A stretch of DNA of 64,000 nt from an uncultured virus (IMG/VR IMGVR_UViG_3300042396_000075). Lineage: Duplodnaviria; Heunggongvirae; Uroviricota; Caudoviricetes. The stretch lies in IMG/VR virus record IMGVR_UViG_3300042396_000075. One strand, written 5' to 3'. This document shows positions 17,501 to 39,737 of the stretch, piece after piece. Positions within the stretch are counted from its first letter, which is position 1. Every line of letters begins with the position of its first letter. The notes beneath the pieces were generated by a model that worked only from the letters and a program-made list of their open reading frames with translations, did no database searches and was not told the origin of the DNA. Made by a program: the position numbers and the translations under genes.

Positions 17501-20500
17501 ATGATTAATTACACTAACAACTTTCCTATAGTACCGGAGACACCAGAGACACCGAGACTGCAACCACAATACTACACAACTGGGAATCAATTCTTGATGG
17601 CTTATCAGGGTGCTCCTAACTATGTTGATATTGCAAGAATGCATGAACCGGGTTTTTGGGGACCACAGCCTAACACCCAAAAAGATACTTACAATAACTT
17701 ATATGCTCTATCACAAGCAGAGTCTATTAGCACAGGTAGTGCTCAGGGCTATGCACAAAAGATTGCGGAGTATCTAGGTATGGGACCTAATGAGTTCCAA
17801 GATTATTCATTGGGTGCATTTCAGCGTGGTATTTTAATGGGTCAGAAAGATGATCCCTTAGCTCCGGTAGAGTTTGGAGCCAGTCAGTTAACTCCTGAAG
17901 TGCAAGATAACCTTCGCTCCATACTTTCCAAGTTGTTACCTATTGCTAAACAAGAACCACAAGATCCTGAGAATCCTACTCCAACACAAAAAAGAGTGAA
18001 TGCTATGATGTACCAGCTTGCCTATGCAAAGGCAAGCGAGGTTACTAAAACAGATCTTGGTTTTTCTGTAGTTGATGCCTTCCGCTCACAAGCAGAAGTC
18101 TATGGTAAGATTCTAAATGCGTATACTTATGGAGCCGCAGGTGCTTTATATGATGGATACAATGCAGCTTATAATCCTACTAAGAATACTAAGATTGCTA
18201 GAGGCATTGATGATATTCTAAAGATTCGTAACCGAGTTGATTTAACTTTTGATCCTGCTATGTGGTGGCGTAATTTAGATCCTACCGTCCAACAGGGTTT
18301 TATTGAAAATGGTATATCACCAAGTACAATTAGAACAGCACTCAATGAAGATGAAGCCAACTTTAGAATTGGTGAAATAATCTTTAAGGGTGATACTCAA
18401 AAAAGAATTGAAGCCTATGCTCCCGGATATCTGGACAGTGGGCGACTAATCAGAGATAATTTGATTGGTGGTATTATAAATTCTTCGGATACCATTCCGT
18501 TTATTGCCCTAGAAATTGGAGCTACAGTTCTTACTGGTGGTGTTGGTAGTTTAGTTGCTACAGCAGCAGCAGCTCCTACTACAGGTTTAACTGTCTTTAG
18601 AGCAGCTCGTAATGTTGCTTCAACAATTGCTAAGCTTCCTCTGGGAATAAGTCCAACCTATGCCAAGAATCTTGGCTTGATTGGTGGCTCTACTCTAACG
18701 GGTGCAATCTTCGGAGTTGGTGCAGCCTTGCAAGAGACTACCAGACAAGAAAAACAAATTGCTTATGCTAATGCCCTTGTCTTTGCTGACCCAGAAATGC
18801 AGAAGGATTATGATCTTTCAAGCATTGGCTGGGCTGGTGGTGAGGGGTTTGCAATCGGCTTCTTGGGCTTTGGTGTGCTACCCCAAGTTGTAGGTAGTAC
18901 GGCTGGGGCTTTCCTAAACAAACTCAAGGGTGTCAATGTTGCCCCTCTGGGAGAATCTGTAGTTCGTATGACCGGAGACAAACGCTTTACCTATGAAGGT
19001 ACAAGCGTTGGTGAGGCTCTGGGATTCTACAAAGGCAAGTTAAGTCGTAAGGATGTAGCAGTTGATCTACCCCTCCATGAGAAGATCATTACCGAAGCCG
19101 AGCTAGAGGGTGTAAAGCCCTCAGCACAGCAGCTAAGTAATGAAACCCAGACTGCAGTCAATAGAGCTGATGCTCGTGCTGCAGTGACTCCTGATGCCGC
19201 TAGAGCAACCCCTGATGTTCCTATGACCAGACGGTTGGACAACGAAACCAGACAAGCCTATGCTGAACGCACAGGTGCTAATGGTACTCTCAGCAACATC
19301 ATTGAGTTTGTTACTGAGATATCCCGTAAGAACTCAGCGGGGGATGCGGTTAAGGAACGCGCTTCCCTTACTGGGACGGGTGATACCTTTGGTGACATGG
19401 GAACTACAGATAGACTTCGGATTCTTTATGCATCCGAAGAACATCTGAATACAACCAGACTTAAGGAAAAGGAAGCAGGTAAGTTAACCCCTGCTCGTGA
19501 GAAAGCCTATGCGATTATGGAGTCGCAGCGGCGTGGTATGATTAAACAATACACTAAGTCTCTGTCCAAGCCAGAGCGTAAGGCTCTCAGTGATAGTCTT
19601 GGTGGTGTCAAGAAATCTGTTAAGACTATTACGGAACATGTAGCTGATGCTAGATCTACCGTGATTACCTCAGCAGCCAAGAATGAAGCAGCTGAAAAGG
19701 CTGCAGTCAGCTTGCTGGGAACAGCGCGAGAGATCGTAGCTAACCCCACAAGGAAGGCTGAACTCCGTGCTGATCTTCCAAAAGAAGTCTTAGATATCCT
19801 TGATGCTGCAATCACTGAAGTTGCTATTACTGGCACAGTCAGTCCAAGTACTGTTGAAGCCCTAAAGGCAGACATCAGTGGTGTGGCTCGTAAGCCATCT
19901 AATAGATTGACGGACTCAATTAAAGAAGCCCTTAAGATTAAGAAGTTGAATCCAAAGCGAATGGCTTTGATCAACGCACTTAAGGATGACATTAATAAGT
20001 TCTCTTCACTAGTCTCTGGTAACCAAGCTAATGCTGAGAAGTTCTTTCAGTTCACCAATGATTTAGTAGATACTGGATTCATTAATGAAATTGACCAAGC
20101 TATTCTATTAGCTTCTGTAGTTCATTTAAACTTTGACTCCAAGGCTTTTGCAGTAGACTTTAAAATTCAATCAATTGTAGATGCGAATGGATTCATTGAG
20201 TACACAACAATTGGTGCTTATAACGCAAACCTTAATACAATAGTAATGAACAGCTCATGGATTGGTGATGACTCAGAGCGAAGAGCTATCACAGTCTTGC
20301 ATGAAATTGGACATGCTTATTTCCAATCAAGTGCAACATCTGATATCTATGTAGATAATTTAAAGATGTACAATAGTCTCACTAAAAACTATGGACCATC
20401 CTTATTAAATCTAGATGTAGCTAACATGGCTGATCCATTACTCTCCGCTAACTTCCTGAGTGTGTATCATCTTCAGAATGCAGAAGAAGTATTTGTTCAG

Positions 20501-23500
20501 TCCTTCTCAAAGATTCTATTTACTGAAGCACAGTTCGCTGTATCACAGATGGCTCCAATTGAAGTATCTTCTTTTAGATCTATCATCAACAGCATGGAAC
20601 AAGGCATTATACTTGCAGCCACTATGTTTGATACTTCAGATCATTACACTGTTGTTAATGGTTTGATTAATCGTTTGACTGAAATGGATATGGCTGCATC
20701 TAAAGCTATCTCTGTTCCAGACTTATCAAGAGCATATGCAGCTGCAGTAAATGCACAGACAGTATCAAGTGATATTGCCTCTAATGTGTTTAACACTTTT
20801 GTAAAAGACTGGATAGTTAAGAACCTACCAGAGCATAGTCCAGAAGTTGTTAAGAGAGCTATGTTAACTAGTGGTGAATATAATCTCATTATGAGAGGTG
20901 ATAGAGATCCTTCTCTGATTGTTGCATTGACAATCCTAAAGAGCAATGGCAGACAAGCTATTGACATGAAGGGCAATCCTACTGTATATATGAAAGACTT
21001 GGTTGATGTCTATAGTACATATAAGCAAACCCAGTTTGGATCTATGCTTATTAAGACTGCCTTCTTACTTACTACTCCAGACTATGCAAAACTAGTTGGA
21101 ATGAGTAAAAATGATCGTATCAAGTTCATGCAACGAAGATTGTTTAGCATGGGAGCCTCATCTTTTGAATCAGTTCAGGGTGGTTTTGAAACCATCTTAG
21201 CTGCTACTTATGAAGATCGTGGTCTAGCCCAGATGCAAGCTACTAATTATTTAGATCCTCTAAATAAACCTAGTCGATACTCACATACCTTCTGGGGAAC
21301 CAAAGCTACTTCGCTTATGGAGTTGCTAGACAACCCTGTTGACGAAGGGGCTATTAAGAACGGTCTTAGTGAAACTGATAGACTTGCTTTATTAGAACAA
21401 GTAAGAAACGATCCATACTTGAATCAACCGTTGATGCATACCTTAAAAGACTATTATAAGAATAATGGCTTTGCAGATATTGCTCATCTGGTTACTTTGG
21501 TACATCATAAGAATTACATTGATACTCTCAAAACAGAAGGTGTCTTTGATGTTGATATCCGTAGGGATGTAGACTATGATACTCCTGATGTTTTAATTGG
21601 AACTGTCAAAGACACATTAAACAATCTACTAGATCCTGCAACTAAAACTGCAGTTACTGAAGCAGATAAAGATGTTGCCGCTGTTCTTTTAAAAGTATTA
21701 GATAATACTACTTTAGCTAAGCAAGTCTTTAAGAGTACACAGCTTGCAGATAATGTGGGTGGTAGATTCTTCTCAAGACTAAATACTATAAGCTTAAACA
21801 CTAGATTTGATCGTGGTAATATTAATGTCCATGAGATTATACATGCTGGTGTCTGGAATAAGATTGATGCTATTTTAGAAGCACAAAAAATAAATACTAA
21901 TCGTCCTTTAGATATAAATGACTTCCGTTGGGATAGAGAACTGCAAGCTAAGTTAGCAACTACTAATCCAGAGTCAACTCTATATAAAGAATCTCTAGCT
22001 GTTGCAGAGTTAATACAAGCTTATCGTGATGCTAATGATCATGTTAATAGACTGGGAATAGATAAGACTACTAAAGAAGGTAGACGGTTAACTTATGGTT
22101 TAACTAATCTAAATGAATTCATTGCTGAGTTCTTAGCAAATGAAAAGTTTAGAAATCTATTTGTAGATCTAGAAGTACAGGGGTTAAATAAATCTCCTGG
22201 AGCATCAAAGAATTCCTTTACACAAGTAGTGTGGAATTCATTAAAACGCATTATTGGAATTGATATTGAAGACAAGGGTCAAACAAACTTTATACAAGCA
22301 TCTCTTAATAATATTGAAACAGTACTAAGAGCTGATATTAAAAGTAAAAGTGATCTTTATGTTGCTCCTGTTCCTTCTCTAGATCCCGTAGAAAGATTCC
22401 AAAAGGTCTTTGGGGATAGCGTGGCTGTAGATAAAAAGACGGGCAAACCATTACTCCTATCTCATGGCACTACTTTTGAGTTTGATAACTTTCAATTAAA
22501 TAAGATGGGATTAGTATTCTTCACAGAGAGCAAAAGCTTTGCTGAGGATTATACTGGTAGCACTGGTCGTATTGTACAGAGGGCTATTGCAGTTTCTCGC
22601 CCATTTAACTATAAAGTAAAAGGGCATTTAGAAGTTATAGAAAGGGGTTTTAAATCTGGTGAGCTATCTCTTTCAGCATATCTGAATGAAACAATTAAGA
22701 AAGCAGATGAACCGTATCGAATTAAACAAGCAATCAACACTATTTCATTGGGTTATTGGAGTGATATAGAAAACCAACTCTTAGTTGATTTTATTAAAGC
22801 CAATGGGTTTGATGGACTTCGCGTTAAGGAAGTTGGACCCAATGGAAAAGATGTAATCAACTGGGCTGTCTTTGATACGCAACAAATACTTGAAGTACCT
22901 GAAGGTGTAATGTCTGAAGTTGATTGGAGTATGCGAGATATGGATCTTCCTATCTGGTCTTCTAAGGACATTGCTGTTGATTCGATTGCCGCATTCCTAA
23001 GCAACAAGGATATTACTCATCTGAGTATTCCTACTTTGCTTAAGAACATTGATGCAGCATTGATTCAAAAGATAAGTGATACTCCAAACATGACCCCTGA
23101 AGCAGCATTAGCTGGTATTCATAAAATGATTACTACTGGGGCTATTGTCTTAAATGAAACTTCTGGTAAGTGGGAACTTCCTTCTACTAAGAAACCAAAG
23201 GAACCAAGTAAAGCCGCCAAGGCTGCTAAAACGCCTAAGGCAAAGAAAGCAGTCAAAGCAAAAGAAGCTAAGGTAAAGGAAGCTACAACACTTGCTGCTA
23301 TTTCCGATGGCAGTGCAGAACTTACTGTAGCAAATCTAGATGATACTATTGTTAGATTGTATGGAGAAAAGAAACTTACAACCGAACAACTCAGTACGCT
23401 ATACTTTCATAAACCATATCTTGTTAGCAAACTTGAAGCCGGTACTTTGCCAACTGAAAAAACTTTGCTTAAGCTTGCTTCAACACTACGCAGAAACCAA

Positions 23501-26500
23501 GTCATCTCTGACAAGAGAATAGGTAAAGGTGGTAAGAATGCCCAGCAAGGAGAAACTGCAGACGGTGAAACCAAACTAGGATCTGCACCTAAACAAAATG
23601 CTGGTAAGTTTGTACCAACCACTGAAAAAGAATTCAGTGCTATTATGTTTGACAGAGCATTGACATGGAATAATCTCACAAACAATGCTCTCTTAACCCC
23701 AGAAGAAGTTACGCTAGCTAAAGCTTTGCTATCGGTTGAGTCCGATAAAGAATTAGCTTCTAAGTCAGCCGAGCTTCTTGGTAAGAAAGTAGAAGATAGA
23801 ACTATTGGCAACCGCAGAAATGCGTTGTATGATAAGATGGTTGCTATTGGTAAGGCTATTGAATATGATCCAAAGGCTAAGCTAGTAGAAACTCAAGACT
23901 CTCTTCTAGCGCATGTTAAGCAAATGGATCAGGTTGTTACTAAGGCAGTAGAAAAGCCAGAGTCAGTTAAGGCGATTGTTAAGCAAGCCGAAGATGCTCC
24001 AACTCCAAAGCAAGTGTCTACTCCAATTGATGCTGGAAGTCGCTTGCTAGAGAAGCAAGCCTTGGCTGCTAGAAGTAAAAAGACCGATGCCCCTCCAGTT
24101 ATGACACCTGTTACAAAGGTGGAAGAGGGTACATTGTTTAGAGCTACTTCGGAAGTTACTGGTAATGTTCCAGAAGCTGTACTACGACCAGAGAAACAAG
24201 TTGATGCCATCATTGAAAACAGTGATGTGTCAACCAAAGAAGCTGTGTCGTTTGTTCCTAAGAAGCCACTAGTAATGACTATGACCGCAGCTGAGTTCAT
24301 GGCTAACGAAGTTAAGATGGCATCCACTATGAAGGTTGCAGATAGAATGGGCGTTGATGCTCTCGTCTTCTCAGACGGTGTAGTAATACCAGTTCAAGCT
24401 GATGCACCTGTGGTTGTTAAGGGTGTTACTGAAACTAAGGTTAAGGCGGGTGTTCCTTCTGTAACAAAGATTAAGGTTAAGAAAGGTGTGCCAATAAAGA
24501 CTGTAACAGCTGCCGTTGAACCTCCTAAGGTTGAGGTAGTAGAACCAACCACAACTCCAGCTCCGGCTGTAGCACCTGTGGAAGATCTACCTTCAACTCC
24601 GGTTCCACTTGCAGCCAGCGAAGGCGCACCAGTTAGAGTTACTAAGACAGGTGGCATTGCTCCCCCTGCTCCACGAAAGACTGTATCAGACGTTGTTAAG
24701 ACTACTGAGACAGAAAGAATAGAGCGGGTTGTTAATGATGATAAAGATTTACTTCGTGACAACGGAATGGACCAAGGGTTCTTAAAGTTATTCTTAAAGA
24801 ACTACTGGACACGCATGAAGAATATAGATCAATCAGTTGATACGTATTCTCCTACGCTGTTGGCACTGTGGACAAAGTTTGTTACTATCAACAAAGCAAT
24901 TGTTGAAGCTAACAGAGCTGTCTTTGGTGATGAGGGTATATCCAAGTTCTGGATTGCGGTAGATAAGCTACGGGCTGAGAATGTTCAGAAGCTTGCTACT
25001 GTTCCGGGTTTCAAGTCTCTATCAGAGCGTCAGCTCATGGTACTTGCTGCCAAGGAAGTTGGTGATGCTTACATGCCTCCTATTCTTTTGGATGAATTGA
25101 ATATTGTTAAATCATCTGAGGATGCTACTGCATTTACTTTAGTTGCCAAGGAGTCTAAGACTCCTCGAAAGAAAGTAAGTGATGCCACTAAAGCAGAGTC
25201 TCCAGTGCCTACACCACCTGAACCAACTCCCGCTCCAGCCCCTAAGGCTGGTGATGAAGTGGGTGTTCCTGAGAAGTTGGATCTCCCAATAGAGCCAATA
25301 AAGGAAACACCTAGAGGTGACATGGGTAGGATGATTGATGCTGGTGTCAGTAACTCTGCCGAAGGTGCATCAGTATTGCTACGTCAAGGTAGTCTCATTG
25401 GAGCAATCTTTGGTGGTAGTGAGCGATCATCTAGAAACTGGTGGAGAGCTATGATGAGTTGGATGGCTAACTCAAGTCAAGCAGCTAGTCAGACTGGTAA
25501 GACCATTAGAAATCTACAGAAGGATATTCGATTCCTGTCTCGTTGGTTTGAAGACAACCGAGCACAGTCAGGACATTTAGTTGGAGCAGGTAAGGAAGCT
25601 TTCCGAACTGCAAGACAATGTAAGTCTGATGAAGCCCGGATGATTACCCGTATTGCTAGACAACAACTCTTACTCAATAAAAAGTTGAAGGATAGTGGAC
25701 TAGCTCTAGATAAGGTTAGAGCTGTTGGTGTACTAAGTTATACAAAGCTTTCAGAGGGTACTATTATTGCCCCTGCTGATCTTGTTGCTCTTGGTCTATC
25801 CCCAGACCTAGCTAAGTCCATTGCTGTTGAAGCTAATTCGTTGTTACAAATTACAAGACAGACCAATCAAACTATATTAGGTTTACAGAATGAAACAGGT
25901 TTGTTTAATAGCAATGCTGCTGATGGTACGCCATTTGATCCTATGAAGTATGCTCCAGTTCAGTTGAACCATGAAAGCTTCTCAGCTATGAGTCCAACTG
26001 ATCGTGCTCTCTTTGTAGCGGGTCTTGTAAAGGCTCGTAGAACTCGTAAGTTAAAGTCACCAATCTTAGACATCAATACACTTATTGTTCTTGGTTGGCT
26101 AGACGTTGCTCCATCAAAAGAGGCGAGAGGTACTGCCTTGTTTGCTGGCAAGCGAGACTTTAGACCCGGTGAGTCAACTCAGAGCTTTAGCCCTGAGACT
26201 CTAGCTGGTCTAAAGATATCTGAACATCCAATTACTGTTGGTGAGAAAGGTGTTCTAGCTACATTGGCTAATGGTTCTGACTCACAGAATTACTTTGTTC
26301 TTACAAATGATAAGAGTGGTGTTATCACATTATATCGAATGCCTAAGGTTATTAGTGAACTAGCTGATGCCGATAGAGTTCGTTACATTGAAGCAATCAA
26401 TGGCAATAAGTCTTTGTATACCCAACGGTGGCAAGACTACCTAAAGGGTAGAGAGCTTATTGAAGTTGAGATGAATGAGATGTTAGACTATAAGACAAAG

Positions 26501-28675
26501 AAGGGTGCATACAGTGAGTACCAGAGAAACACTGGTACTAACATTGATAGACCTCTGATGGTAGTTGATCAGGCAGCGGAGACAGCTTTGGCTGTTCCCG
26601 GTTTGATTCCTGAAGAAGTACTATCTGATCCTGTTATTCTAAAACACATTAGAACCAATCTAGCTGAGTCTTATAATTACTTTATGAATGGTAGAGTATT
26701 TGAACTTATCTTCCAGAGAGAACTTGATAGACTCATGGGTACTCGCAATGTAAGAATCACTGATGTGTTTCCTCATATCGCAAGTAAGTCCAGACAGAAT
26801 TTAGAAACTATAGCTAAAGCTGAGAATTGGACTCCCGGACAGTTGGCTGCAAGACTCCAAGATGTTACGGAAGGTATTCAAAGACTTAAGGATGAATATG
26901 CATCTAATGCAGATACTCTTCCTATGCTTCCTTATCAGGATCAAGCGGCTGCAAGAAGCCTATTGGCATTGATGAAAGTTAAGGTTGCTACTGGTTACTT
27001 CCTTGGAGCATTGCCTGAGCTTATGATGGAAACGCTAAAGTCAAATCCTTTACATCTTCCGGGTAATCTCATTAGTGCTTTAAGGTTTGTGGTCGGAGAC
27101 TTCCGAGTCTCAAAGAACTCTCTTATGAATAACTCTGAGCTTGGAGACATGATCTTCGGTCTGGAGAATATTAAGTATGAGTTTAGTTCCCGATTCTTGG
27201 GTGAGGCAAATCAAGGAGCGTTTGAATTAGATTCTACAATTGGATCTAAGATCAAGAGTAAGTTTATTAATCCTCGCCCTGCAACGGGTATGATAGATAG
27301 AGGCGTTCGTGTTCTAGAGTCTGGAGCTAGAGTTGCTGAGACTATTGGTTCGCTACAAGCGATCACCAATATAACCAGATCAATGGCTAAGGTCCGACTA
27401 CAGCGTATGATCTATGGTCATATTAAGAAAGGTAGAATTCAAAAGCTACTAGTAGCCCTAGAAGATCCTGCCATGATGAAACTCATGCAGGACTATATGG
27501 CAGCTGCAGAGACAAGCGCAGGAGCAGAGAATCAGCTCCGTAAACAATTCTACACATTGGCTAGAAAGACTGGCTTCGGGTTCAACCCAAAGGAAGCTCT
27601 AGTCTTTATGAAGTATGGTTTAAACTCTGTCGAGAAGATTAAACATCTTGAATATTTAATTAAGAAGGTTGACAAGAAGGGTGAGGGTCGGGTTAATCTA
27701 CACAACATGGTTGATGTATATTGGCATGCTACCACTCATCCTGTTGATGGTATTAAGCCAGAAGTATTAGAGCAAGCTATTAGTTCTTACGGACTTGCCC
27801 TAGAAGATCTGGTGGTTAAGACATCATCACCTGAACCTATTGGTTTGGGTCGAGTCACTACGATTGATTCCAAGACACCACTTGGTAAACTCTGGTATGC
27901 TCTTAGCTCCTACATCCGTGGGTTCCAAGATAATGTTATAATGGATTATGGTAGCCGCGATACACTTCGGTACTTAGCCGCTAACATAGTTCTTTATGGA
28001 ACATTGGATGCCACTATCGGTCTACTCCGTGAGTGGATAGCCGGAAGAGATGGCGAGGATATCCTTGAAGAGTTCTCAGATAACCCACATGCCTTTGCTG
28101 TTCGTGTAGCTAAGTCTGCCCCTATCATGGGAATGTGGTCTGGTGCTCTAGAGGCTGGCTTAAGCGGTCTGAGCTACATGTCTGGTGGCACTTGGAAGTA
28201 CTACGGTAGTCCAATGCAGTCCATCGGTATGGGAGCTGCTACCGGGGCTGTAGAGAGTATTGGTAGAGGCGTTAGTGAAGTTGTAGAAGGAGTCACGGGT
28301 GATGAGGAAGTTGATTACATGAAGGTTGCTAAGGGAGTTGGTGATATCACATCAGTTAACTCTTTGTTAAACCGAAGTCCAATTGCTGTGGCTGCTAGAT
28401 CCCTAGAAGTCTCAGGAGCTTTGGAAGAAAAGGGAACATTGCAAACCTACATGAATATGATTCACAGAAACCCACATCCTTATGCAAAGAGCCAAGGAAG
28501 AAAACAAAGTTCTTCTCAGTCGTTACCACCGATACCTAAGGTTGCCCCCCGCAACTTTGAGCTGGAAGCCCAAGCCCTTAAGAAGGCAAGAGCAGCCCAA
28601 GCCGGAGTCCGTTATGAAGACATGTCAAAGGGTGTATCAGGTTCCCTAGGGGATCTCTTAGATGATGCCCAATAG
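17501..28675 (+). CDS. Giant internal virion protein (gp16-like position), polyvalent
   Basis: 3724 aa; two HExxH motifs, an ART-like segment and an HTH-like segment; Gly-rich hydrophobic stretches near both ends. Confidence 0.7.
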   Translation: MINYTNNFPIVPETPETPRLQPQYYTTGNQFLMAYQGAPNYVDIARMHEPGFWGPQPNTQKDTYNNLYALSQAESISTGSAQGYAQKIAEYLGMGPNEFQDYSLGAFQRGILMGQKDDPLAPVEFGASQLTPEVQDNLRSILSKLLPIAKQEPQDPENPTPTQKRVNAMMYQLAYAKASEVTKTDLGFSVVDAFRSQAEVYGKILNAYTYGAAGALYDGYNAAYNPTKNTKIARGIDDILKIRNRVDLTFDPAMWWRNLDPTVQQGFIENGISPSTIRTALNEDEANFRIGEIIFKGDTQKRIEAYAPGYLDSGRLIRDNLIGGIINSSDTIPFIALEIGATVLTGGVGSLVATAAAAPTTGLTVFRAARNVASTIAKLPLGISPTYAKNLGLIGGSTLTGAIFGVGAALQETTRQEKQIAYANALVFADPEMQKDYDLSSIGWAGGEGFAIGFLGFGVLPQVVGSTAGAFLNKLKGVNVAPLGESVVRMTGDKRFTYEGTSVGEALGFYKGKLSRKDVAVDLPLHEKIITEAELEGVKPSAQQLSNETQTAVNRADARAAVTPDAARATPDVPMTRRLDNETRQAYAERTGANGTLSNIIEFVTEISRKNSAGDAVKERASLTGTGDTFGDMGTTDRLRILYASEEHLNTTRLKEKEAGKLTPAREKAYAIMESQRRGMIKQYTKSLSKPERKALSDSLGGVKKSVKTITEHVADARSTVITSAAKNEAAEKAAVSLLGTAREIVANPTRKAELRADLPKEVLDILDAAITEVAITGTVSPSTVEALKADISGVARKPSNRLTDSIKEALKIKKLNPKRMALINALKDDINKFSSLVSGNQANAEKFFQFTNDLVDTGFINEIDQAILLASVVHLNFDSKAFAVDFKIQSIVDANGFIEYTTIGAYNANLNTIVMNSSWIGDDSERRAITVLHEIGHAYFQSSATSDIYVDNLKMYNSLTKNYGPSLLNLDVANMADPLLSANFLSVYHLQNAEEVFVQSFSKILFTEAQFAVSQMAPIEVSSFRSIINSMEQGIILAATMFDTSDHYTVVNGLINRLTEMDMAASKAISVPDLSRAYAAAVNAQTVSSDIASNVFNTFVKDWIVKNLPEHSPEVVKRAMLTSGEYNLIMRGDRDPSLIVALTILKSNGRQAIDMKGNPTVYMKDLVDVYSTYKQTQFGSMLIKTAFLLTTPDYAKLVGMSKNDRIKFMQRRLFSMGASSFESVQGGFETILAATYEDRGLAQMQATNYLDPLNKPSRYSHTFWGTKATSLMELLDNPVDEGAIKNGLSETDRLALLEQVRNDPYLNQPLMHTLKDYYKNNGFADIAHLVTLVHHKNYIDTLKTEGVFDVDIRRDVDYDTPDVLIGTVKDTLNNLLDPATKTAVTEADKDVAAVLLKVLDNTTLAKQVFKSTQLADNVGGRFFSRLNTISLNTRFDRGNINVHEIIHAGVWNKIDAILEAQKINTNRPLDINDFRWDRELQAKLATTNPESTLYKESLAVAELIQAYRDANDHVNRLGIDKTTKEGRRLTYGLTNLNEFIAEFLANEKFRNLFVDLEVQGLNKSPGASKNSFTQVVWNSLKRIIGIDIEDKGQTNFIQASLNNIETVLRADIKSKSDLYVAPVPSLDPVERFQKVFGDSVAVDKKTGKPLLLSHGTTFEFDNFQLNKMGLVFFTESKSFAEDYTGSTGRIVQRAIAVSRPFNYKVKGHLEVIERGFKSGELSLSAYLNETIKKADEPYRIKQAINTISLGYWSDIENQLLVDFIKANGFDGLRVKEVGPNGKDVINWAVFDTQQILEVPEGVMSEVDWSMRDMDLPIWSSKDIAVDSIAAFLSNKDITHLSIPTLLKNIDAALIQKISDTPNMTPEAALAGIHKMITTGAIVLNETSGKWELPSTKKPKEPSKAAKAAKTPKAKKAVKAKEAKVKEATTLAAISDGSAELTVANLDDTIVRLYGEKKLTTEQLSTLYFHKPYLVSKLEAGTLPTEKTLLKLASTLRRNQVISDKRIGKGGKNAQQGETADGETKLGSAPKQNAGKFVPTTEKEFSAIMFDRALTWNNLTNNALLTPEEVTLAKALLSVESDKELASKSAELLGKKVEDRTIGNRRNALYDKMVAIGKAIEYDPKAKLVETQDSLLAHVKQMDQVVTKAVEKPESVKAIVKQAEDAPTPKQVSTPIDAGSRLLEKQALAARSKKTDAPPVMTPVTKVEEGTLFRATSEVTGNVPEAVLRPEKQVDAIIENSDVSTKEAVSFVPKKPLVMTMTAAEFMANEVKMASTMKVADRMGVDALVFSDGVVIPVQADAPVVVKGVTETKVKAGVPSVTKIKVKKGVPIKTVTAAVEPPKVEVVEPTTTPAPAVAPVEDLPSTPVPLAASEGAPVRVTKTGGIAPPAPRKTVSDVVKTTETERIERVVNDDKDLLRDNGMDQGFLKLFLKNYWTRMKNIDQSVDTYSPTLLALWTKFVTINKAIVEANRAVFGDEGISKFWIAVDKLRAENVQKLATVPGFKSLSERQLMVLAAKEVGDAYMPPILLDELNIVKSSEDATAFTLVAKESKTPRKKVSDATKAESPVPTPPEPTPAPAPKAGDEVGVPEKLDLPIEPIKETPRGDMGRMIDAGVSNSAEGASVLLRQGSLIGAIFGGSERSSRNWWRAMMSWMANSSQAASQTGKTIRNLQKDIRFLSRWFEDNRAQSGHLVGAGKEAFRTARQCKSDEARMITRIARQQLLLNKKLKDSGLALDKVRAVGVLSYTKLSEGTIIAPADLVALGLSPDLAKSIAVEANSLLQITRQTNQTILGLQNETGLFNSNAADGTPFDPMKYAPVQLNHESFSAMSPTDRALFVAGLVKARRTRKLKSPILDINTLIVLGWLDVAPSKEARGTALFAGKRDFRPGESTQSFSPETLAGLKISEHPITVGEKGVLATLANGSDSQNYFVLTNDKSGVITLYRMPKVISELADADRVRYIEAINGNKSLYTQRWQDYLKGRELIEVEMNEMLDYKTKKGAYSEYQRNTGTNIDRPLMVVDQAAETALAVPGLIPEEVLSDPVILKHIRTNLAESYNYFMNGRVFELIFQRELDRLMGTRNVRITDVFPHIASKSRQNLETIAKAENWTPGQLAARLQDVTEGIQRLKDEYASNADTLPMLPYQDQAAARSLLALMKVKVATGYFLGALPELMMETLKSNPLHLPGNLISALRFVVGDFRVSKNSLMNNSELGDMIFGLENIKYEFSSRFLGEANQGAFELDSTIGSKIKSKFINPRPATGMIDRGVRVLESGARVAETIGSLQAITNITRSMAKVRLQRMIYGHIKKGRIQKLLVALEDPAMMKLMQDYMAAAETSAGAENQLRKQFYTLARKTGFGFNPKEALVFMKYGLNSVEKIKHLEYLIKKVDKKGEGRVNLHNMVDVYWHATTHPVDGIKPEVLEQAISSYGLALEDLVVKTSSPEPIGLGRVTTIDSKTPLGKLWYALSSYIRGFQDNVIMDYGSRDTLRYLAANIVLYGTLDATIGLLREWIAGRDGEDILEEFSDNPHAFAVRVAKSAPIMGMWSGALEAGLSGLSYMSGGTWKYYGSPMQSIGMGAATGAVESIGRGVSEVVEGVTGDEEVDYMKVAKGVGDITSVNSLLNRSPIAVAARSLEVSGALEEKGTLQTYMNMIHRNPHPYAKSQGRKQSSSQSLPPIPKVAPRNFELEAQALKKARAAQAGVRYEDMSKGVSGSLGDLLDDAQ

Positions 28676-28690
28676 TTGGGGCTACTAGAT
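28668..28690 (+). promoter_or_regulatory. Putative phage RNAP promoter, copy 1
   Basis: CCCAATAGTTGGGGCTACTAGAT; core ATAGTTGGGGCTA seen four times. Confidence 0.55.
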
Positions 28691-29200
28691 AGATACTTAA
28701 GGGATACCTTGAGTAACCTAGACTGTCTTTAAGTTTTTAAAATTATGTTATTATATTATATAGTAATACATAGTCCCTTAGGTAACCTAAGGGTAACCCT
28801 AGTTAACCTAAGTGTTAATTACAATATTATATAAACATACAGATCCTAGGTCCCTGAAAGGGGATCTAGGATTATTCAGAGAATAGAGCACTCCGGGGTT
28901 TACCCCCCGGTTAATCCCTTGTCGATTTCCTATGGGGTCCCCGGATCCCTCTGGGGCTACCGGAGGACATCAACACAAACAACCCTCCACAGGGCAAGCT
29001 AGGGGGATCCCTACTCAATCTAGGAATCGACTAGAGGGGTCAAAAATTAGCGAAGGGGTATCCCCCCTAAATCCCCCCGGCGCACCCCCCGTCATCCCGC
29101 CATGTCCGATAACCTGAGGGGCGTGGCGCGTCCGATAACCTGTGGGGATCAAAGTCCGATAACCTTGGTGGCGAGGGATAAAGTTATCGGACTTTGCGGC
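28690..29200. repeat. Palindrome- and short-repeat-rich non-coding region, probable genome termini
   Basis: TAACC(C)TA repeats, several inverted repeats, GC/homopolymer tract, 3x GTCCGATAACCT; lies between the last structural gene and the first early gene. Confidence 0.55.
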
Positions 29201-29269
29201 TTGTGGTTGCGGATTTTCCCGGCTGATGCGTTGTTAAGTGTCAGCGAATACGAATCGCCGACCTGATCG

Positions 29270-29690
29270 CACCTTACCGGATCTACCGCCCTCAAGGGAC
29301 ATCGTAGCAGGTAAAGCCAACGCCCGAAGGGTTGTCGGAGGTGATGTCATGGAGATTGCACGAATCCCGGCTTGAGTGCCGATGGATCCCTCACCGACAT
29401 GAGGGGGGTAGTAGTGCCGTAATCCATGAATGTTATCAGAACTTCCCCTACGATATGGAACGCATCCAATAAGCCGTCCTAGTAGGTAACCCGATGAATC
29501 CTCGCACTAATGGTAAGCCGATGATTCTGACGTAAGGAGGTGGCACGAGGAGTGCTATGCCCTATGGGCATCGTTCAATAAGCGTAACTTGCAGCCCCAA
29601 GAGGTGGAGCAAGTGAGGAGATTGAATAAGACTGAGGTATAGTAAAGGCGAAAGCGATAGATATCTCAGTACGTAAGATGGTGGATACTC
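29270..29690 (+). ncRNA. Candidate large structured ncRNA (~420 nt)
   Basis: No ORF in the track; many nested helices with G-U pairs; long-range closing pair 29281-87/29680-86. Confidence 0.6.
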
Positions 29691-29797
29691 TAGATTGGCA
29701 CTAGAGTACCCTCTAGAATCCCCTGCGTTCTTTCGTAGGGTATTGCTAGAGGGTAGAATTGTTCTATCCTTTCATCCTCTTTCGGAGAATAATCACT

Positions 29798-30097
29798 ATG
29801 GATAAGAATACTCTCATTACTTTCATGAATAAGGGTCGTTCTGCTGATATGGAGACTGCCGGAGCGGTGTATGATTACTTGTACTGCAAGGCTAAGAATG
29901 CTAAGCATACTACGCAGGGCATTGCATCGTCTGTCTTTGGTCAGATGAATGCTCTGTTGGTTCGTGGTGGTCATCTCGGCTTTGATCGAGATGAACGGGC
30001 TGAGTTTAATTCGTGGGTTGGTCTACCTGCTCCCGGTACTAACAAGAGCAATGCTGCTAATGAAGCATCGAATGTTCTTGCTGAGTTTGGTCTGTAA
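29798..30097 (+). CDS. First early gene, hypothetical
   Basis: ATG at 29798 after GGAG; 99 aa. Confidence 0.7.
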   Translation: MDKNTLITFMNKGRSADMETAGAVYDYLYCKAKNAKHTTQGIASSVFGQMNALLVRGGHLGFDRDERAEFNSWVGLPAPGTNKSNAANEASNVLAEFGL

Positions 30098-30115: not shown

Positions 30116-30147
30116 GGATGGTAGGGGTGAAATATCTCCTATCATCC
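30116..30147 (+). promoter_or_regulatory. 12-bp intergenic hairpin (possible RNase III site or terminator)
   Basis: GGATGGTAGGGG pairs with CTCCTATCATCC, including G-U pairs. Confidence 0.45.
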
Positions 30148-30163
30148 ATTCAAGGAGGCTACT

Positions 30164-30349: not shown

Positions 30350-30558
30350 TGGAGATCATTGATTCATTCAGCGGCAAGGGCTATAAGATTGTTAAGACTC
30401 GTATTAATGACGAGGATGGTGTATGGTCTGCTAGTCGGGCAGAAGTTGGTGGTTTCTATTATGTTGTTTGGAATGATGGTCTTCGGCAGTATCGGACTGC
30501 TGAGTTAGTTCGGGCTGATATTGCGGCGATGTCTAACTCTGAGAAAATAGGTGCATAA
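30349..30558 (+). CDS. Early hypothetical protein
   Basis: Translationally coupled on both sides. Confidence 0.7.
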   Translation: MEIIDSFSGKGYKIVKTRINDEDGVWSASRAEVGGFYYVVWNDGLRQYRTAELVRADIAAMSNSEKIGA

Positions 30559-30707
30559 TGTTCAGAGTAGAATATCAGGGATCGCATGTATGCACTGGGT
30601 CATATGCTCAATGCTTGGCGTATATCCGCAATGATACGGGCATGGTCTTAGATGATGTTGAGATTGTTAGTGTAGAGTCTGGTCGTTTGATGTCGTGGTC
30701 AATCTAA
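30558..30707 (+). CDS. Early hypothetical protein (49 aa)
   Basis: TAATG-coupled; MFRVEYQGSHVCTGSYAQCL... Confidence 0.6.
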   Translation: MFRVEYQGSHVCTGSYAQCLAYIRNDTGMVLDDVEIVSVESGRLMSWSI

Positions 30708-30717
30708 AGGAGATACT

Positions 30718-30984
30718 ATGATCGTAGTAACATCGCGGAGTTTGGATGCCAATGTTAACGAGAAGTTGAGTCGTCCATTGGGTACATTCACTGATATGGT
30801 GGATGTTAAGGAAGCCCGTCTTGCGGACATGGTAACTGAATCCTTGCCCGGATGGGCTAGGGATAGCATCATGATTGATATGAGACAAGTCTCCGCTAAT
30901 CAATGGGTTAGCATATGCCACGATAAGGGTGCATGTATGCATGTTTGTCTGATTGAAGTGACGCAAGTCCTTCACTATGTCTAA
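30718..30984 (+). CDS. Early hypothetical protein
   Basis: AAGGAG RBS. Confidence 0.65.
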   Translation: MIVVTSRSLDANVNEKLSRPLGTFTDMVDVKEARLADMVTESLPGWARDSIMIDMRQVSANQWVSICHDKGACMHVCLIEVTQVLHYV

Positions 30985-30985
30985 T

Positions 30986-31203
30986 ACGGTATACCGTAGG
31001 GAAACCTATGGTATACCTTTGGTTGCTAACATCCTCCTCAATGTTAGATAGTTTGCTGACTATTAAAACGTGAACAATCAGCAAAGGTTAGTTACCGATA
31101 CTATGCTTGTCGTAGGCATACAGAATAACTATTCACTAGGTATGATAGTTGCCTAGTGAATCTATTTCCTATCACGGTATACCGTAGGGAAACCTATGGT
31201 ATA
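30986..31203 (+). repeat. Two identical 30-nt hairpins flanking a structured spacer
   Basis: ACGGTATACCGTAGGGAAACCTATGGTATA at 30986-31015 and 31174-31203. Confidence 0.9.
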
Positions 31204-31246
31204 TCTTTCGTCTGACTTACTTTCTTTCTTTAACAAGGAGAATGAT

Positions 31247-34202: not shown

Positions 34203-34278
34203 AGAAGGGTGGCTGAAACGCAGTTATAGCGCACACCTTATAAGTGTGAGTATGTGGGTGCAACTCCCGCCCCTTCTA
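34203..34278 (+). tRNA. tRNA-Ile(UAU)
   Basis: Acceptor AGAAGGG/CCCTTCT; anticodon arm CACAC-CT TAT AA-GTGTG; T arm GTGGG-TGCAACT-CCCGC; no encoded CCA. Confidence 0.8.
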
Positions 34279-34291
34279 TTAAAGGAACCTT

Positions 34292-34516
34292 ATGATCTTA
34301 CCCGACTTAGATGCTAATGAAACTATCTATGAGACTGCTGATCGTATGTATGATTGGCTCCGTCTTCATGGGTTTGCTGTTACTATACTTACGCCTGATG
34401 ATTTAGAAGTTGAACCTAAACAGGATAAGATTAATAGAGAGACAGTAGAACTTGAGATGCAAGCCGCTGGTCTTAACTACATCGAATGGATTAAGGAAGG
34501 ATACTACAATGGCTGA
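34292..34516 (+). CDS. Hypothetical protein, paralogue of the next gene
   Basis: YDWLRLHGFAVTILTPDDL...MQAAGLNYI. Confidence 0.7.
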   Translation: MILPDLDANETIYETADRMYDWLRLHGFAVTILTPDDLEVEPKQDKINRETVELEMQAAGLNYIEWIKEGYYNG

Positions 34517-34787
34517 TGTCTTTGTGTACAATAAGGATGAAAGTATTGAAGAGAATGTATACCAAGCATACGCTTGGATTCGTAAGCAAGGGTATGCCGT
34601 TGCTATGTGGACACCTGAAGAGATGACATTAGATCCTAAGCATTACAAGGAGACTGATGGGTATGTTACCTTTAGGGAAGACCATCTTGAAGATGCAATG
34701 ATTACTGCGGGTTATGAATATATTACTGAGATGAAGCGTGTTCTCTCTATTGATCCTAACTATGAGGAAAATGACAATGAAGATTGA
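34509..34787 (+). CDS. Hypothetical protein, paralogue of the previous gene
   Basis: YAWIRKQGYAVAMWTPEEM...MITAGYEYI. Confidence 0.7.
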   Translation: MADVFVYNKDESIEENVYQAYAWIRKQGYAVAMWTPEEMTLDPKHYKETDGYVTFREDHLEDAMITAGYEYITEMKRVLSIDPNYEENDNED

Positions 34788-35205
34788 TATTGCTAAGCAA
34801 TGGGTTGATGCTCTTAAGTCTGGTACTTACCAACAAGGGCAAGGTAAACTCCATGCCACAGATATTAATGGAGCATGTATGTACTGCTGCCTTGGTGTAC
34901 TGTGTGATCTGTATATGCAACAGAACCCTGATGAGTTAGATGTTAAGGTTGTTACTCGTAGGTCAGATCAATTCCCTCAACACTTTCAGATGTTGAGTAT
35001 AGGTGATGACTCTATTACTGTCTATGATAATGATAGTCTTGTGTTACCATTGCGTGTTCGTGAATGGGCAGGTATGCACGATGCTCTTGGACGATTCATT
35101 GATAGTGAGTCACATGGACAAGACTCTTTGGCAGAACTAAATGATCATGGTATGTCATTCGCTAAACTTGCTGATGTTATTGAAGTGCATGTTGCTGAAC
35201 TTTAA
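34777..35205 (+). CDS. Conserved-type phage hypothetical protein
   Basis: WVDALKSGTYQQG...YCCLGVLCDL...LNDHGMSFAKLADVIE, a pattern I recognise from phage hypotheticals. Confidence 0.7.
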   Translation: MKIDIAKQWVDALKSGTYQQGQGKLHATDINGACMYCCLGVLCDLYMQQNPDELDVKVVTRRSDQFPQHFQMLSIGDDSITVYDNDSLVLPLRVREWAGMHDALGRFIDSESHGQDSLAELNDHGMSFAKLADVIEVHVAEL

Positions 35206-35211
35206 ACCACT

Positions 35212-35285
35212 GTCCTTGTATCTCAATTGGATAGAGGCATCGGTTTCTACCCGATAGGTTACTGGTTCGAGTCCAGTCAGGGACG
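35212..35285 (+). tRNA. tRNA-Arg(UCU)
   Basis: Cloverleaf; anticodon arm ATCGG-TT TCT AC-CCGAT; T loop TTCGAGT. Confidence 0.92.
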
Positions 35286-35289
35286 CTTT

Positions 35290-35340
35290 GGTAGGTGCAT
35301 ATACAATAGGCTTTGACCCTATCATGCTATGTATCCTACC
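35290..35340 (+). ncRNA. Armless tRNA-Gln(UUG)-like element
   Basis: Anticodon arm ATAGG-CT TTG AC-CCTAT on a ~12-bp outer stem; no D or T arm. Confidence 0.5.
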
Positions 35341-35343
35341 TAT

Positions 35344-35416
35344 GGCACGGTAGACCAATGGCAGAGTCTACAGACTTAAAATCTGTGTAGTGTGGGTTCG
35401 ACTCCCACCCGTGCTA
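35344..35416 (+). tRNA. tRNA-Leu(UAA) with short variable loop
   Basis: Acceptor GGCACGG/CCGTGCT; anticodon arm ACAGA-CT TAA AA-TCTGT; T loop TTCGACT. Confidence 0.88.
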
Positions 35417-35421
35417 CTATA

Positions 35422-35493
35422 GGGATTGTAGCTCAATGGTAGAGCAGTCGGCTTTTAACCGATTGGTTAAGAGTTCAAGTCTCTTCTGTCCCA
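35422..35493 (+). tRNA. tRNA-Lys(UUU)
   Basis: D arm GCTC-AATGGTA-GAGC; anticodon arm GTCGG-CT TTT AA-CCGAT; one T-T mismatch in the acceptor stem. Confidence 0.9.
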
Positions 35494-35511
35494 CTAAGAA
35501 AGGATACTATC

Positions 35512-37265: not shown

Positions 37266-39737
37266 ATGTCTAAACTGTGGGATTCATTATCTAAAGAAGA
37301 ACAAGATAAAAGAACTGCACTACAAGTTATCTCTGAGGAAGATATGCTTTGCCTATCGGAACATAAATACTGGGATGCATACAATGCTAACCCTGATGAG
37401 GGTATCCCTGAGCAAACATTGATTGACGCATGTGTCATCCATCTTACACCCTTCTACCAGCAATGGATAGATACGGTATCACAGAATAGGAAGACACCTG
37501 AATGGGCATTCCCTTTGTTTGCTGTTGGTGCTGCTAAGATGGCAGACATTACTATTAGATCACTGATTCTCGAATGGTTTAACTCTGCTTTCTGGGAGCG
37601 TAAGTATGAGAACGATCTGTTCCCATTGCCTACTGCTCAACACATAGCACATGTTATATCTGAGATGGTAGTGGAGATTGTAGCCTATCAACAGGCTAAG
37701 AAACAATTCCGTGAGGATTGGCTCAAGCAATCCCACTACCAGAAGAAGTGGACTACTAAGAGATGCAAGGCGTTTGCCTATAAGATGGGTACTCTTAATA
37801 AGAAAACCTTCTCAAGGAAACAACGAGAAGACTTTGGTCATCACATGCTACGCATAGCAGAGATGTCTGAGGTCATTAACTTAAAGAACATTCGTAAGCA
37901 TACAGGCAAGCGATGGAGTGAGCGTGTAGTAGTTACCTTTACTGATGACATATTGAGTGAACTTAATAAGCGTCATCAGGATGTGATTGCTACCGCTGCC
38001 CTGCTGTATCGACCAATGATTATCCCACCAATTAAACATACTCTAAGTAGTAGTGGTGGGAATCTACTACCCCATATCCGTAAGCCTGTAGTACAGAAGT
38101 TTAAGGATGTGATGTGGGATGAGAAGGTACACCAGAATGGTAGCCTTCCATCAGAGATAGTAGTCACTGGTCTTAATGCTATGATGCATACCGAATGGTC
38201 TATCAATGAGCGAGTGCTAGAGATAATGACTGCACTCTTTAAGAACAACACACGAGATGCTAACCTTCCCGTGTATGACTTCTCAGCCTTTGACTTTGCT
38301 GATCCCTATCCTAAGGATGGGACTAAAGAAGAGAAGGCTAAGTGGTGTCAGCTCAAGGAAGAAACATATAGCAATTGGTATAAGGAAGAACGATCACGAG
38401 GTCGTATGCTTGTCCGGATTAAACTTGCACAATCATTAATCCCTTTGAAGTTCTTCTATCATATCTATACCTGTGACTTCCGTGGTCGTGCTAATGCAGC
38501 ATGTGATCTACTTAGTCCACAGTCAAGTGACTTTGATCGTGGTCTTATTCAGTTTGCTCAGCCAAGGAAACAAACATCCATTGGTTTGTATTGGTTAAAG
38601 ATTCATGTCGCTAATCTATTCGATCAGGACAAGACAACCTTTGATCAACGAGTTAAGTGGGTCGATGATAACATGGACATGCTTAAGAGAATCAATGATG
38701 ATCCCTATGCTACCCGCTCTGAGTGGGTATCACATAAGAAGAAAAAGAATCCAAGCTTCCAGCGTATCGCTGCTGTCTTTGATCTGTGTCGTACTGATGG
38801 GTTAACTCAAGTGCCTGTGCAAATGGATGGTTCATGTAATGGTGTTCAGCATTGGGCTGCACTTATGCGTGACCCTTATCTTGCCAAGAAGGTTAACCTC
38901 ATACACACTAACAAGCCCGAAGATTTGTATCAGTATGTTGCTGATGTGATGACATCTAACATGGTGTCAGTACAGGATGCAGATACTAACAATGGAAAAT
39001 GGGCGAAAAAATTTATAGAGTATTGGGAGGGTGACATTGACCGCTCTGTTTGTAAGAGAGCAGTAATGACTGATCCCTATGGTGTTACCTTCTATGGTAT
39101 TCGCAGGTACTGTAAGACTGAGGGTCACCTTGATTGGGTTGGTAAGGATGAGATTGCTGGTGCTGTTGTTGAGTTAGCTACCTTCATTGATGCTGCCCTC
39201 AAGGGTACATTGGTCGAGGCTAACAAGGGCAAGGCATGGCTCAAGGTGGTGGCTGATATGGCTAGTGAGTTAGGTAAGAATGTTGAGTGGACTACCCCGT
39301 GTGGGTTTAAAGTAGTACACCAATACTATGAGATACTAACTAGACGATCAGTCGCTAAGCTATTCGATATGAAAGAGTTACACTTTGGCTCACCCGATAA
39401 GGAAACAATTGATGGTGGCTCAGTTAACCTAGCCATCTCCCCTAACTATATTCACTCACTTGATGCAAGTCATATGTGGTGTACCATATATAGAATGGTG
39501 GGTGCTGGTATTGAGCAGTTCAGTATGATCCATGATTCATATGGTTGTCCTGCACCTGATGTTAATCTAATGCGTATGTTTACTAATGAAGAGTTCTGTG
39601 CTATGCATACGACCAATCTATTAGATGACATGCGGATCGAAGTATCAAAAGCATTGAAGATTACAGTACCTGATGCACCACCTACTGGTTTATTAAACAT
39701 TAAGGATGTTTTAGATGCGGAGTATTTCTTCCAATGA
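37266..39737 (+). CDS. T7-type single-subunit DNA-dependent RNA polymerase
   Basis: DFRGR, DGSCNGVQH (motif A), RSVCKRAVMTDPYG (motif B), PNYIHSLDASH, IHDSYG (motif C). Confidence 0.98.
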   Translation: MSKLWDSLSKEEQDKRTALQVISEEDMLCLSEHKYWDAYNANPDEGIPEQTLIDACVIHLTPFYQQWIDTVSQNRKTPEWAFPLFAVGAAKMADITIRSLILEWFNSAFWERKYENDLFPLPTAQHIAHVISEMVVEIVAYQQAKKQFREDWLKQSHYQKKWTTKRCKAFAYKMGTLNKKTFSRKQREDFGHHMLRIAEMSEVINLKNIRKHTGKRWSERVVVTFTDDILSELNKRHQDVIATAALLYRPMIIPPIKHTLSSSGGNLLPHIRKPVVQKFKDVMWDEKVHQNGSLPSEIVVTGLNAMMHTEWSINERVLEIMTALFKNNTRDANLPVYDFSAFDFADPYPKDGTKEEKAKWCQLKEETYSNWYKEERSRGRMLVRIKLAQSLIPLKFFYHIYTCDFRGRANAACDLLSPQSSDFDRGLIQFAQPRKQTSIGLYWLKIHVANLFDQDKTTFDQRVKWVDDNMDMLKRINDDPYATRSEWVSHKKKKNPSFQRIAAVFDLCRTDGLTQVPVQMDGSCNGVQHWAALMRDPYLAKKVNLIHTNKPEDLYQYVADVMTSNMVSVQDADTNNGKWAKKFIEYWEGDIDRSVCKRAVMTDPYGVTFYGIRRYCKTEGHLDWVGKDEIAGAVVELATFIDAALKGTLVEANKGKAWLKVVADMASELGKNVEWTTPCGFKVVHQYYEILTRRSVAKLFDMKELHFGSPDKETIDGGSVNLAISPNYIHSLDASHMWCTIYRMVGAGIEQFSMIHDSYGCPAPDVNLMRMFTNEEFCAMHTTNLLDDMRIEVSKALKITVPDAPPTGLLNIKDVLDAEYFFQ

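Follow-up and report, generated by a model that had tools for sequence, protein, structure and literature searches.

A candidate structured RNA in a hypervariable slot before the early genes of a large T7-like phage

The DNA analysed (the window, 64,000 nucleotides) makes up most of the genome of a large T7-like podophage. A single-subunit RNA polymerase (RNAP) gene was located at 37266-39737, together with genes for a T7-type primase/helicase and DNA polymerase, the top matches of the terminase were T7-like maturases, and all main genes were on the + strand. The closest cultured RNAP was 28% identical. Four tRNAs (Ile-TAT, Arg-TCT, Leu-TAA and Lys-TTT; 34203-35494) serve A/T-rich codons, which suggests that the host has a higher G+C content than the phage. 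Bacteroides was considered as the host and set aside, because the sole GTDB match was a contig of 20 kb that had probably been mis-binned into a Bacteroides MAG. A gene for a 3,724-aa protein (17501-28675; an ART-PolyVal ADP-ribosyltransferase-like domain, PF18760, E 2e-8, at aa 1646-1796, as in polyvalent proteins) is followed by a gene-free interval (28676-29797) between the late genes and a series of small early genes, which extends for ~7.5 kb ahead of the RNAP gene. In T7, a gene-free stretch leads from the left genome end to the first early gene (the layout before gene 0.3), and genome ends are expected in an interval of this type; by analogy, the ends of the window phage should lie, as we presume, within 28676-29797. 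The original prediction had placed a ~420-nt structured RNA (29270-29690) ahead of the first early gene, and in the T7-like gene order this stretch does sit between the last late gene and the first of the early genes. The interval and its borders contain the following features:

28671..28687, + strand: candidate phage RNAP promoter, located where the late genes end and directed towards the presumed genome end
29104..29246, + strand: conserved upstream flank with three GTCCGATAACC repeats, one inverted copy and a 55-nt block
29247..29707, + strand: cassette A, a structured non-coding RNA candidate that fills a variable slot (ends approximate)
29709..29753, + strand: 18-bp bulged stem (predicted fold), a candidate processing site
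29721..29734, + strand: conserved closing motif CCCTGCSTTCTTTC, found in all but one of the 11 distinct slot sequences
29798..30097, + strand: first early gene, encoding an all-helical protein of 99 aa, which travels with cassette A

The 17-nt sequence AATAGTTGGGGCTACTA occurred exactly three times in the 64 kb (at 28671, 33040 and 49879, one of them within the early region), a number of matches reached in none of 100 shuffles, and it is likely to be a promoter of the phage RNAP; no promoter of this type was found inside the slot. An early promoter is presumed to lie in the conserved flank (29104..29246), and a search from 28831 to the cassette found no site of the sigma-70 consensus, which may not be the type used by the host. 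The three direct GTCCGATAACC repeats and the inverted one (29104-29196) differed in copy number and spacing among strains and are possible protein-binding or terminal signals. Further upstream, two non-coding blocks (28880-28931 and 29022-29098) were kept in relatives with 76% RNAP identity and are candidate terminal-repeat or packaging signals. Long hairpins lie between the early genes at 30117-30150, 30988-31017 and 31176-31205, of which those at 30988 and 31176 are GAAA-capped and present in up to three copies in relatives; all three are candidate processing sites or terminators.

In the sister phages L022, L017 and L005, homology to the window ended at 29246-29247 and resumed at 30447-30980, so that the exchanged block also took in genes 1-3. 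The slot was defined as lying between an inverted GTCCGATAAC repeat and the closing motif at 29721-29734, and 11 distinct sequences were obtained: three of type A (537-538 nt), three of type B (L010, 461 nt; L011, 379 nt; and the truncated L006), and those of L131 (314 nt), L008 (331 nt), L024 (431 nt), L037 (356 nt) and L030 (103 nt). No similarity of type A to any other slot type was detected by local alignment, nhmmer or covariance models. The RNAP genes were 98.2-99.1% identical among carriers of A (window, L016), B (L022/L010, L020/L011) and the L017/L008 cassette, and 76-77% identical in L024, L030 and L037. As the slot of L030 measures only 103 nt, a large RNA is dispensable for some relatives. 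The closing motif CCCTGCSTTCTTTC had one exact copy in the window, and the slot sequence that lacked it came from a contig cut short. In L008, L010, L011 and L024 the motif also forms the start of a long stem, whose 3' arm differs between them; in L037 and L030 it does not. The motif could be an antitermination box (boxA); no paper on such a closing motif was found in the literature searched.

The slot is thus hypervariable, and the cassette and the first gene change together. Cassette A adjoined the gene for the 99-aa protein in all three distinct variants. Nine homologues of this protein were found (38-95% identity, one of them a 59-aa fragment), with no Pfam or PHROG family and no usable Atlas feature match. 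Its structural model had five helices (pLDDT 76), and a fold search gave no significant match, the best being AcrF3 (Z 4.8, rmsd 3.2, 80 aligned), which was within background. The first genes of L010, L011, L131 and, more weakly, L008 were from another family, the one in L131 being related to the first gene of type B (E 9e-20), and no homology was found between the 99-aa protein and the first genes of other slot types. The first proteins of L024 and L030 did not align by BLASTP and were therefore not grouped as one family. Joint travel of the RNA and gene 1 is equally explained by their adjacency.

Covariation was richer in cassette B (L010:6450-6850 and L011:6415-6735, also L006 and L131) than in cassette A. 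Both partners had changed in 8 of 38 predicted pairs of the 5' part and in 7 of 26 of the 3' domain, and several G-U changes were seen on the + strand. One strand of cassette B fitted either a local hairpin or a long-range helix, and the compatible variation of both pairings suggests a switch. The 3' domain was also present in L131, and L008 was at most weakly related. A pattern scan for cassette B gave six loci, namely the three known ones and three chance matches. The other slot types had no Rfam match at E up to 1, and z scores of whole slots on the + strand ranged from -0.3 to -3.5. Pistol ribozymes (RF02679) were found between early genes at L037:3157-3228 and L039:969-1042 (38.9 and 46 bits, respectively), and none in the window. 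In distant relatives (RNAP 48-52%), gene-free early stretches with strong folding (z -3.6 to -6.3, 12 shuffles) were observed at L043:5690-6430, L046:5950-6530, L049:5170-5660 and L050:4590-5200, partly tRNAs and long hairpins.

All helix arms named in the original prediction were located in the sequence at the positions given, and the GC content of the stretch (0.51, relative to 0.41 in the window) agreed with the enrichment described. The stretch had also been called ORF-free, which holds in that no long ORF covers it, but ORFs of 40-48 aa overlap it. Protein coding by cassette A was rejected because the longest ORF is frameshifted between variants; a few ORFs of 8-19 codons were shared by all three near-identical variants. 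Nearly complete pairing had been envisaged, which overstates the proportion of paired bases, 54% (centroid) or 60% (MFE). The proposed RNAfold comparison with shuffled controls gave an ordinary folding energy, with z -1.67 on the + strand and 5 of 100 shuffles as good; on the minus strand of the 421-nt stretch, z was -1.62 and 7 of 100 shuffles were as good. As many as 14 of 25 sampled 421-nt genome windows scored as low as the stretch (a rough comparison, with eight shuffles each), and it contained two perfect helices of at least 7 bp, where the null gave a mean of 3.3. Over the entire 528-nt slot, z was -4.4 on the minus strand versus -1.4 on the + strand (30 shuffles).

The local helices of the original prediction were well predicted (pair probability, P, 0.77-0.99), these being TCATGG/CCATGA, CGGC/GCCG, CCCTCA/TGAGGG, ATGCCC/GGGCAT, TTCAAT/ATTGAA, ACTTGC/GCAAGT, ACTGAGGTAT/ATATCTCAGT and GC-GAAA-GC. 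Two of its nested arms were not (ATCGTAG/CTACGAT, P 0.05-0.11; GGAGGT/ACTTCC, P 0.13-0.17), nor was the helix TCCTCG/CGAGGA (0.00-0.04), and the single closed architecture of 420 nt was not supported. The probability of its closing helix ATCTACC/GGTGGAT varied between 0.01 and 0.96, depending on where the ends were set. Within cassette A, the word TAAG occurred six times (29470-29676), mostly at junctions, and AAGCC and CCGATG three times each, a repetition not matched to the same degree in other slot types. The predicted domains are:

29274..29314, + strand: 5' domain, a TTACC/GGTAA helix around CTAC/GTAG and a small hairpin, chosen after the variants had been seen
29333..29338, + strand: candidate pseudoknot strand, the exact complement of the entire 6-nt loop at 29394-29399
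29347..29429, + strand: best-supported domain, in which TCATGG/CCATGA and GCAC/GTGC lead to a junction with hairpins at 29368-29381 and 29388-29405
29441..29551, + strand: middle region of ambiguous fold, with two competing sets of helices
29557..29670, + strand: 3' hairpins at 29557-29571, 29574-29626 and (GAAA-capped) 29631-29670, P 0.77-0.99

In the 5' domain, RNAalifold identified a compensatory change at 29275/29313 in L152. This change favours the local 5' domain, whose interior contains two of the arms that had been assigned to long-range helices. The TCATGG/CCATGA helix of the best-supported domain and both junction hairpins had pair probabilities of 0.92-0.93, and GCAC/GTGC one of 0.71. 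The candidate pseudoknot strand and its loop were invariant in the three variants, and a single match of this kind among several loops would be within chance. The complementarity of CGGCTT to AAGCCG, likewise a candidate pseudoknot, is present with every partner invariant among the variants, and is of a kind that the folding program used cannot score. For the middle region, the MFE and RNAalifold structures disagreed, and a G/A change at 29539 left the pair intact in either. The stems of the 3' hairpins were invariant, with no compensatory change, and three different loops occurred at 29563-29565.

Three distinct full-length variants (the window, the L016 type and L152; ~95% identical), found via the first early protein, were compared. 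The reference for the test was the centroid fold predicted from the window alone, against which the variants were then scored. Out of 26 variable sites, 18 were unpaired in this fold. Three pairs showed compensatory changes on both sides (29350/29426, 29352/29424 and 29360/29415), one changed from G-C to G-U and so was kept on the + strand (29358/29417), and one, at a helix end, was broken. When the same substitutions were placed on random sites of the same base, ~10 breaks resulted on average, and none of 5,000 trials was as good. With substitutions confined to the dense block in which they cluster, three compensations compare with a local null mean of 0.23 (P 0.001). The MFE structure fared worse on the variants (three breaks). 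In a post hoc structure 4 of 74 pairs were compensated and none was broken, with 8 of 500 shuffles as high; this structure carries less weight because it was fitted to the variants. A sequencing run (X1, probably DNA) contained four short contigs on the stretch, of which one of 151 nt repeated six changes of L016 and one of L152. In the same contig (depth 2.6, which may hold errors), 29381 was altered, breaking the outer CGGC/GCCG pair, and the base at 29298 was missing.

The covariation was concentrated in one 83-nt domain and came from three near-identical full variants. Among these homologues, compensatory pairs exceeded chance, and the long-range helices received no such support. A conserved RNA fold on the + strand was corroborated for part of the stretch by the change that kept a G-U pair and by the compensations. 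At the level of sequence comparison, part of the fold is therefore conserved and under selection on the + strand, and cassette A is probably a genuine structured RNA, on comparative grounds rather than by its folding energy.

The original prediction had recognised no family, in agreement with a search of the Rfam 15 covariance models, none of which matched at gathering score. Over 29247-29707, no Rfam 15 match was obtained at E up to 10, including ROOL, GOLLD, OLE and raiA, and there was no match to a CRISPR repeat or tracrRNA among the Rfam models at the same threshold. A known self-cleaving ribozyme or group I/II intron was rejected on this search, which detects Pistol in relatives. A tmRNA or tRNA-like element was likewise rejected, as ARAGORN reported only the four tRNAs elsewhere in the window. 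A likeness to RNase P RNA motifs, noticed by eye, had no profile match on the forward, doubled or reverse sequence (profile of 30 RF00010 loci from one phylum, sequence only; positive control 278 bits). Antisense action on phage genes was also rejected, the best match (12 nt) being the same as in shuffles. No homologues of cassette A were found in 72,556 plasmids or, beyond two chance 30-nt matches, in 50,697 phage records, and a scan of IMG/VR with a 17-nt pattern gave 14 loci, of which three were the known copies and 11 were unrelated by alignment score. Neither nhmmer (176 loci) nor a covariance model (26 sources) found a distant cassette A, no second copy was present in the window or the 176 loci, and none was found in five whole records of relatives, a set with no positive control among the five. 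No match was found in six of the nine supplementary files of the largest catalogue of viral structured RNAs (PMC10690425). As far as such searches can define one, cassette A is a new family, outside every family tested. No promoter or terminator delimiting its RNA was found.

The best explanation is that cassette A and the first early gene(s) form an exchangeable module at the leading end of the T7-like phage genome. We put at about 45% the probability that the cassette encodes an accessory RNA at the head of the early transcript, which is cut free at the downstream stem and acts on the host. The slot would lie just inside the genome end that is injected first and would be the first to be transcribed by the host RNAP, with the promoter in the conserved block upstream of the slot. 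Release from the early polycistron would occur at the 29709-29753 stem, a candidate RNase III-like processing site, much as RNase III cuts T7 early RNA (processing described in PMC6938266). By binding, the free RNA of ~450 nt would serve as a decoy for or an inhibitor of a host factor, most likely part of a defence system, and different phage strains would carry different RNAs because their host strains differ in what needs neutralising. Strain-level exchange at the leading end is typical of counter-defence genes. Occupancy of the slot by different folded RNAs gives a hint of an exchangeable tool with which the phage handles its host, and the position of cassette A as one of several unrelated cassettes in sister phages fits an interaction with the host without proving it.

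The main rival reading, which we consider less likely, is that the fold instead remains part of the early transcript and acts in cis, by stabilising the 5' end, by giving the host RNAP a put-like resistance to termination, or by tuning translation of gene 1 or transcription-driven DNA entry. The cassette has the presumed early promoter on one side and gene 1 on the other, the conserved closing motif might be an antitermination box, and downstream come terminator-like hairpins (30988-31205) and then early genes up to the RNAP gene, over ~7.5 kb. The put RNAs of HK022 are described as acting from such a position (PMC9378689), but are ~70 nt long with two stem-loops, as compared with ~450 nt here. 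The unrelated folds amid near-identical polymerase genes and the almost empty slot of L030 also argue against a cis-acting element, as such turnover is unexpected for one whose binding partner is a conserved enzyme of the host. A ribozyme of an undescribed kind, self-cleaving or self-splicing, or else a passenger element, is improbable; it would process the early transcript or merely ride in a tolerant slot. The Pistol ribozymes in the early regions of L037 and L039 and the several junctions and candidate pseudoknots of cassette A point that way, against which stand the lack of an Rfam ribozyme or intron match at E up to 10, of an RNase P signal (circular permutation included), of a second copy in the window or 176 loci, and of an adjoining nuclease or reverse transcriptase gene.

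That the structure forms in single-stranded DNA near the genome end, for entry, replication or concatemer processing, is very unlikely. The presumed termini and repeated palindromes are near, and relative to shuffles the minus strand folds at least equally well; one-sided changes nevertheless retain G-U pairs on the + strand (29358/29417, and several in cassette B), the compensated helices span up to 80 nt, a GNRA tetraloop is present, and terminal signals would be expected in the conserved flanks rather than in a variable slot. The least probable account is a neutral spacer in which apparent covariation stems from one recombined block. It would explain the ordinary folding energy and the location of three of the four compensatory pairs in one dense substitution block, but the local null still gave P 0.001, compensations arose on different branches (29350/29426 in L016 only, 29275/29313 in L152 only), and cassette A was about as conserved (0.95) as the adjacent genes (0.92-0.96).

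Comparison with known systems showed both likenesses and differences. ROOL and GOLLD are, like cassette A, large, multi-domain, phage-encoded RNAs whose function is described as unknown, ROOL being reported as non-essential in one strain (PMC12286853). They are longer, however (659 and over 800 nt, respectively, versus ~450 nt), and tend to adjoin tRNA islands, whereas cassette A heads the early region with the nearest tRNA 4.5 kb off, and unlike them it occupies a strain-variable slot and has no Rfam match. Abundant lncRNAs have been described for phage K (PMC9241854), and at best cassette A would act in the manner of these or of ROOL and GOLLD. There are also leader-derived non-coding RNA candidates known from Pseudomonas phages (PMC10914365). 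The put element of HK022 shares with cassette A the arrangement of a structured RNA 3' of an early promoter and 5' of terminator-like sites (PMC9378689), but cassette A has at least five helical domains, among which a put-like sub-element is possible, and is not conserved in sister phages. RNA inhibitors of phage origin that lie beside counter-defence genes, Racr (PMC10651486) and vsgRNA (10.64898/2026.06.01.729453), are the closest model for the mode of action, being phage non-coding RNAs directly upstream of small accessory genes. They are reported to imitate either a CRISPR repeat or a guide of 89 nt, with acr genes next to them, whereas no recognised Acr lies beside cassette A, for which no likeness to a known defence RNA was found. 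By layout rather than phylogeny, the window phage resembles AG-10.1 (Autographiviridae; PMC12361551), with a large T7-like genome and a 3,724-aa protein before a variable early region and the RNAP, and differs in having an SSB-like gene, which AG-10.1 is reported to lack; the main text of that paper does not use the word 'noncoding'. The likeness to T7 itself lies in the gene-free leader and in a long stem before the first gene (here the predicted one at 29709-29753); unlike the T7 leader, cassette A is a covarying multi-domain RNA exchanged between strains, and no sigma-70 promoters were found here. No published account of the cassette A RNA or of a swappable slot was found in the literature searched.

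To our knowledge, nearly all phage counter-defences are proteins, and the few RNA cases are short CRISPR mimics. A broader reading, which we regard as doubtful, is that phages of this kind reserve a first-transcribed slot for exchangeable RNA-protein modules, and that strains swap several unrelated RNA folds there (250-470 nt), which serve them as effectors of counter-defence or host takeover; it is just as speculative that such a slot is for RNA what the hotspot of anti-defence proteins at the leading end is for proteins in phage genomes. If the slot does hold larger RNAs that are interchangeable and have targets in the host, phages that are nearly identical but carry RNA A, RNA B or another RNA, together with a relative with almost no RNA, would form a natural panel in which the function of large phage non-coding RNAs is directly testable. 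A search rule also follows, namely to inspect the leader ahead of the first early gene. Even if cassette A proves to be a cis-acting leader, at least two uncatalogued families of structured RNA (A and B) would have been defined.
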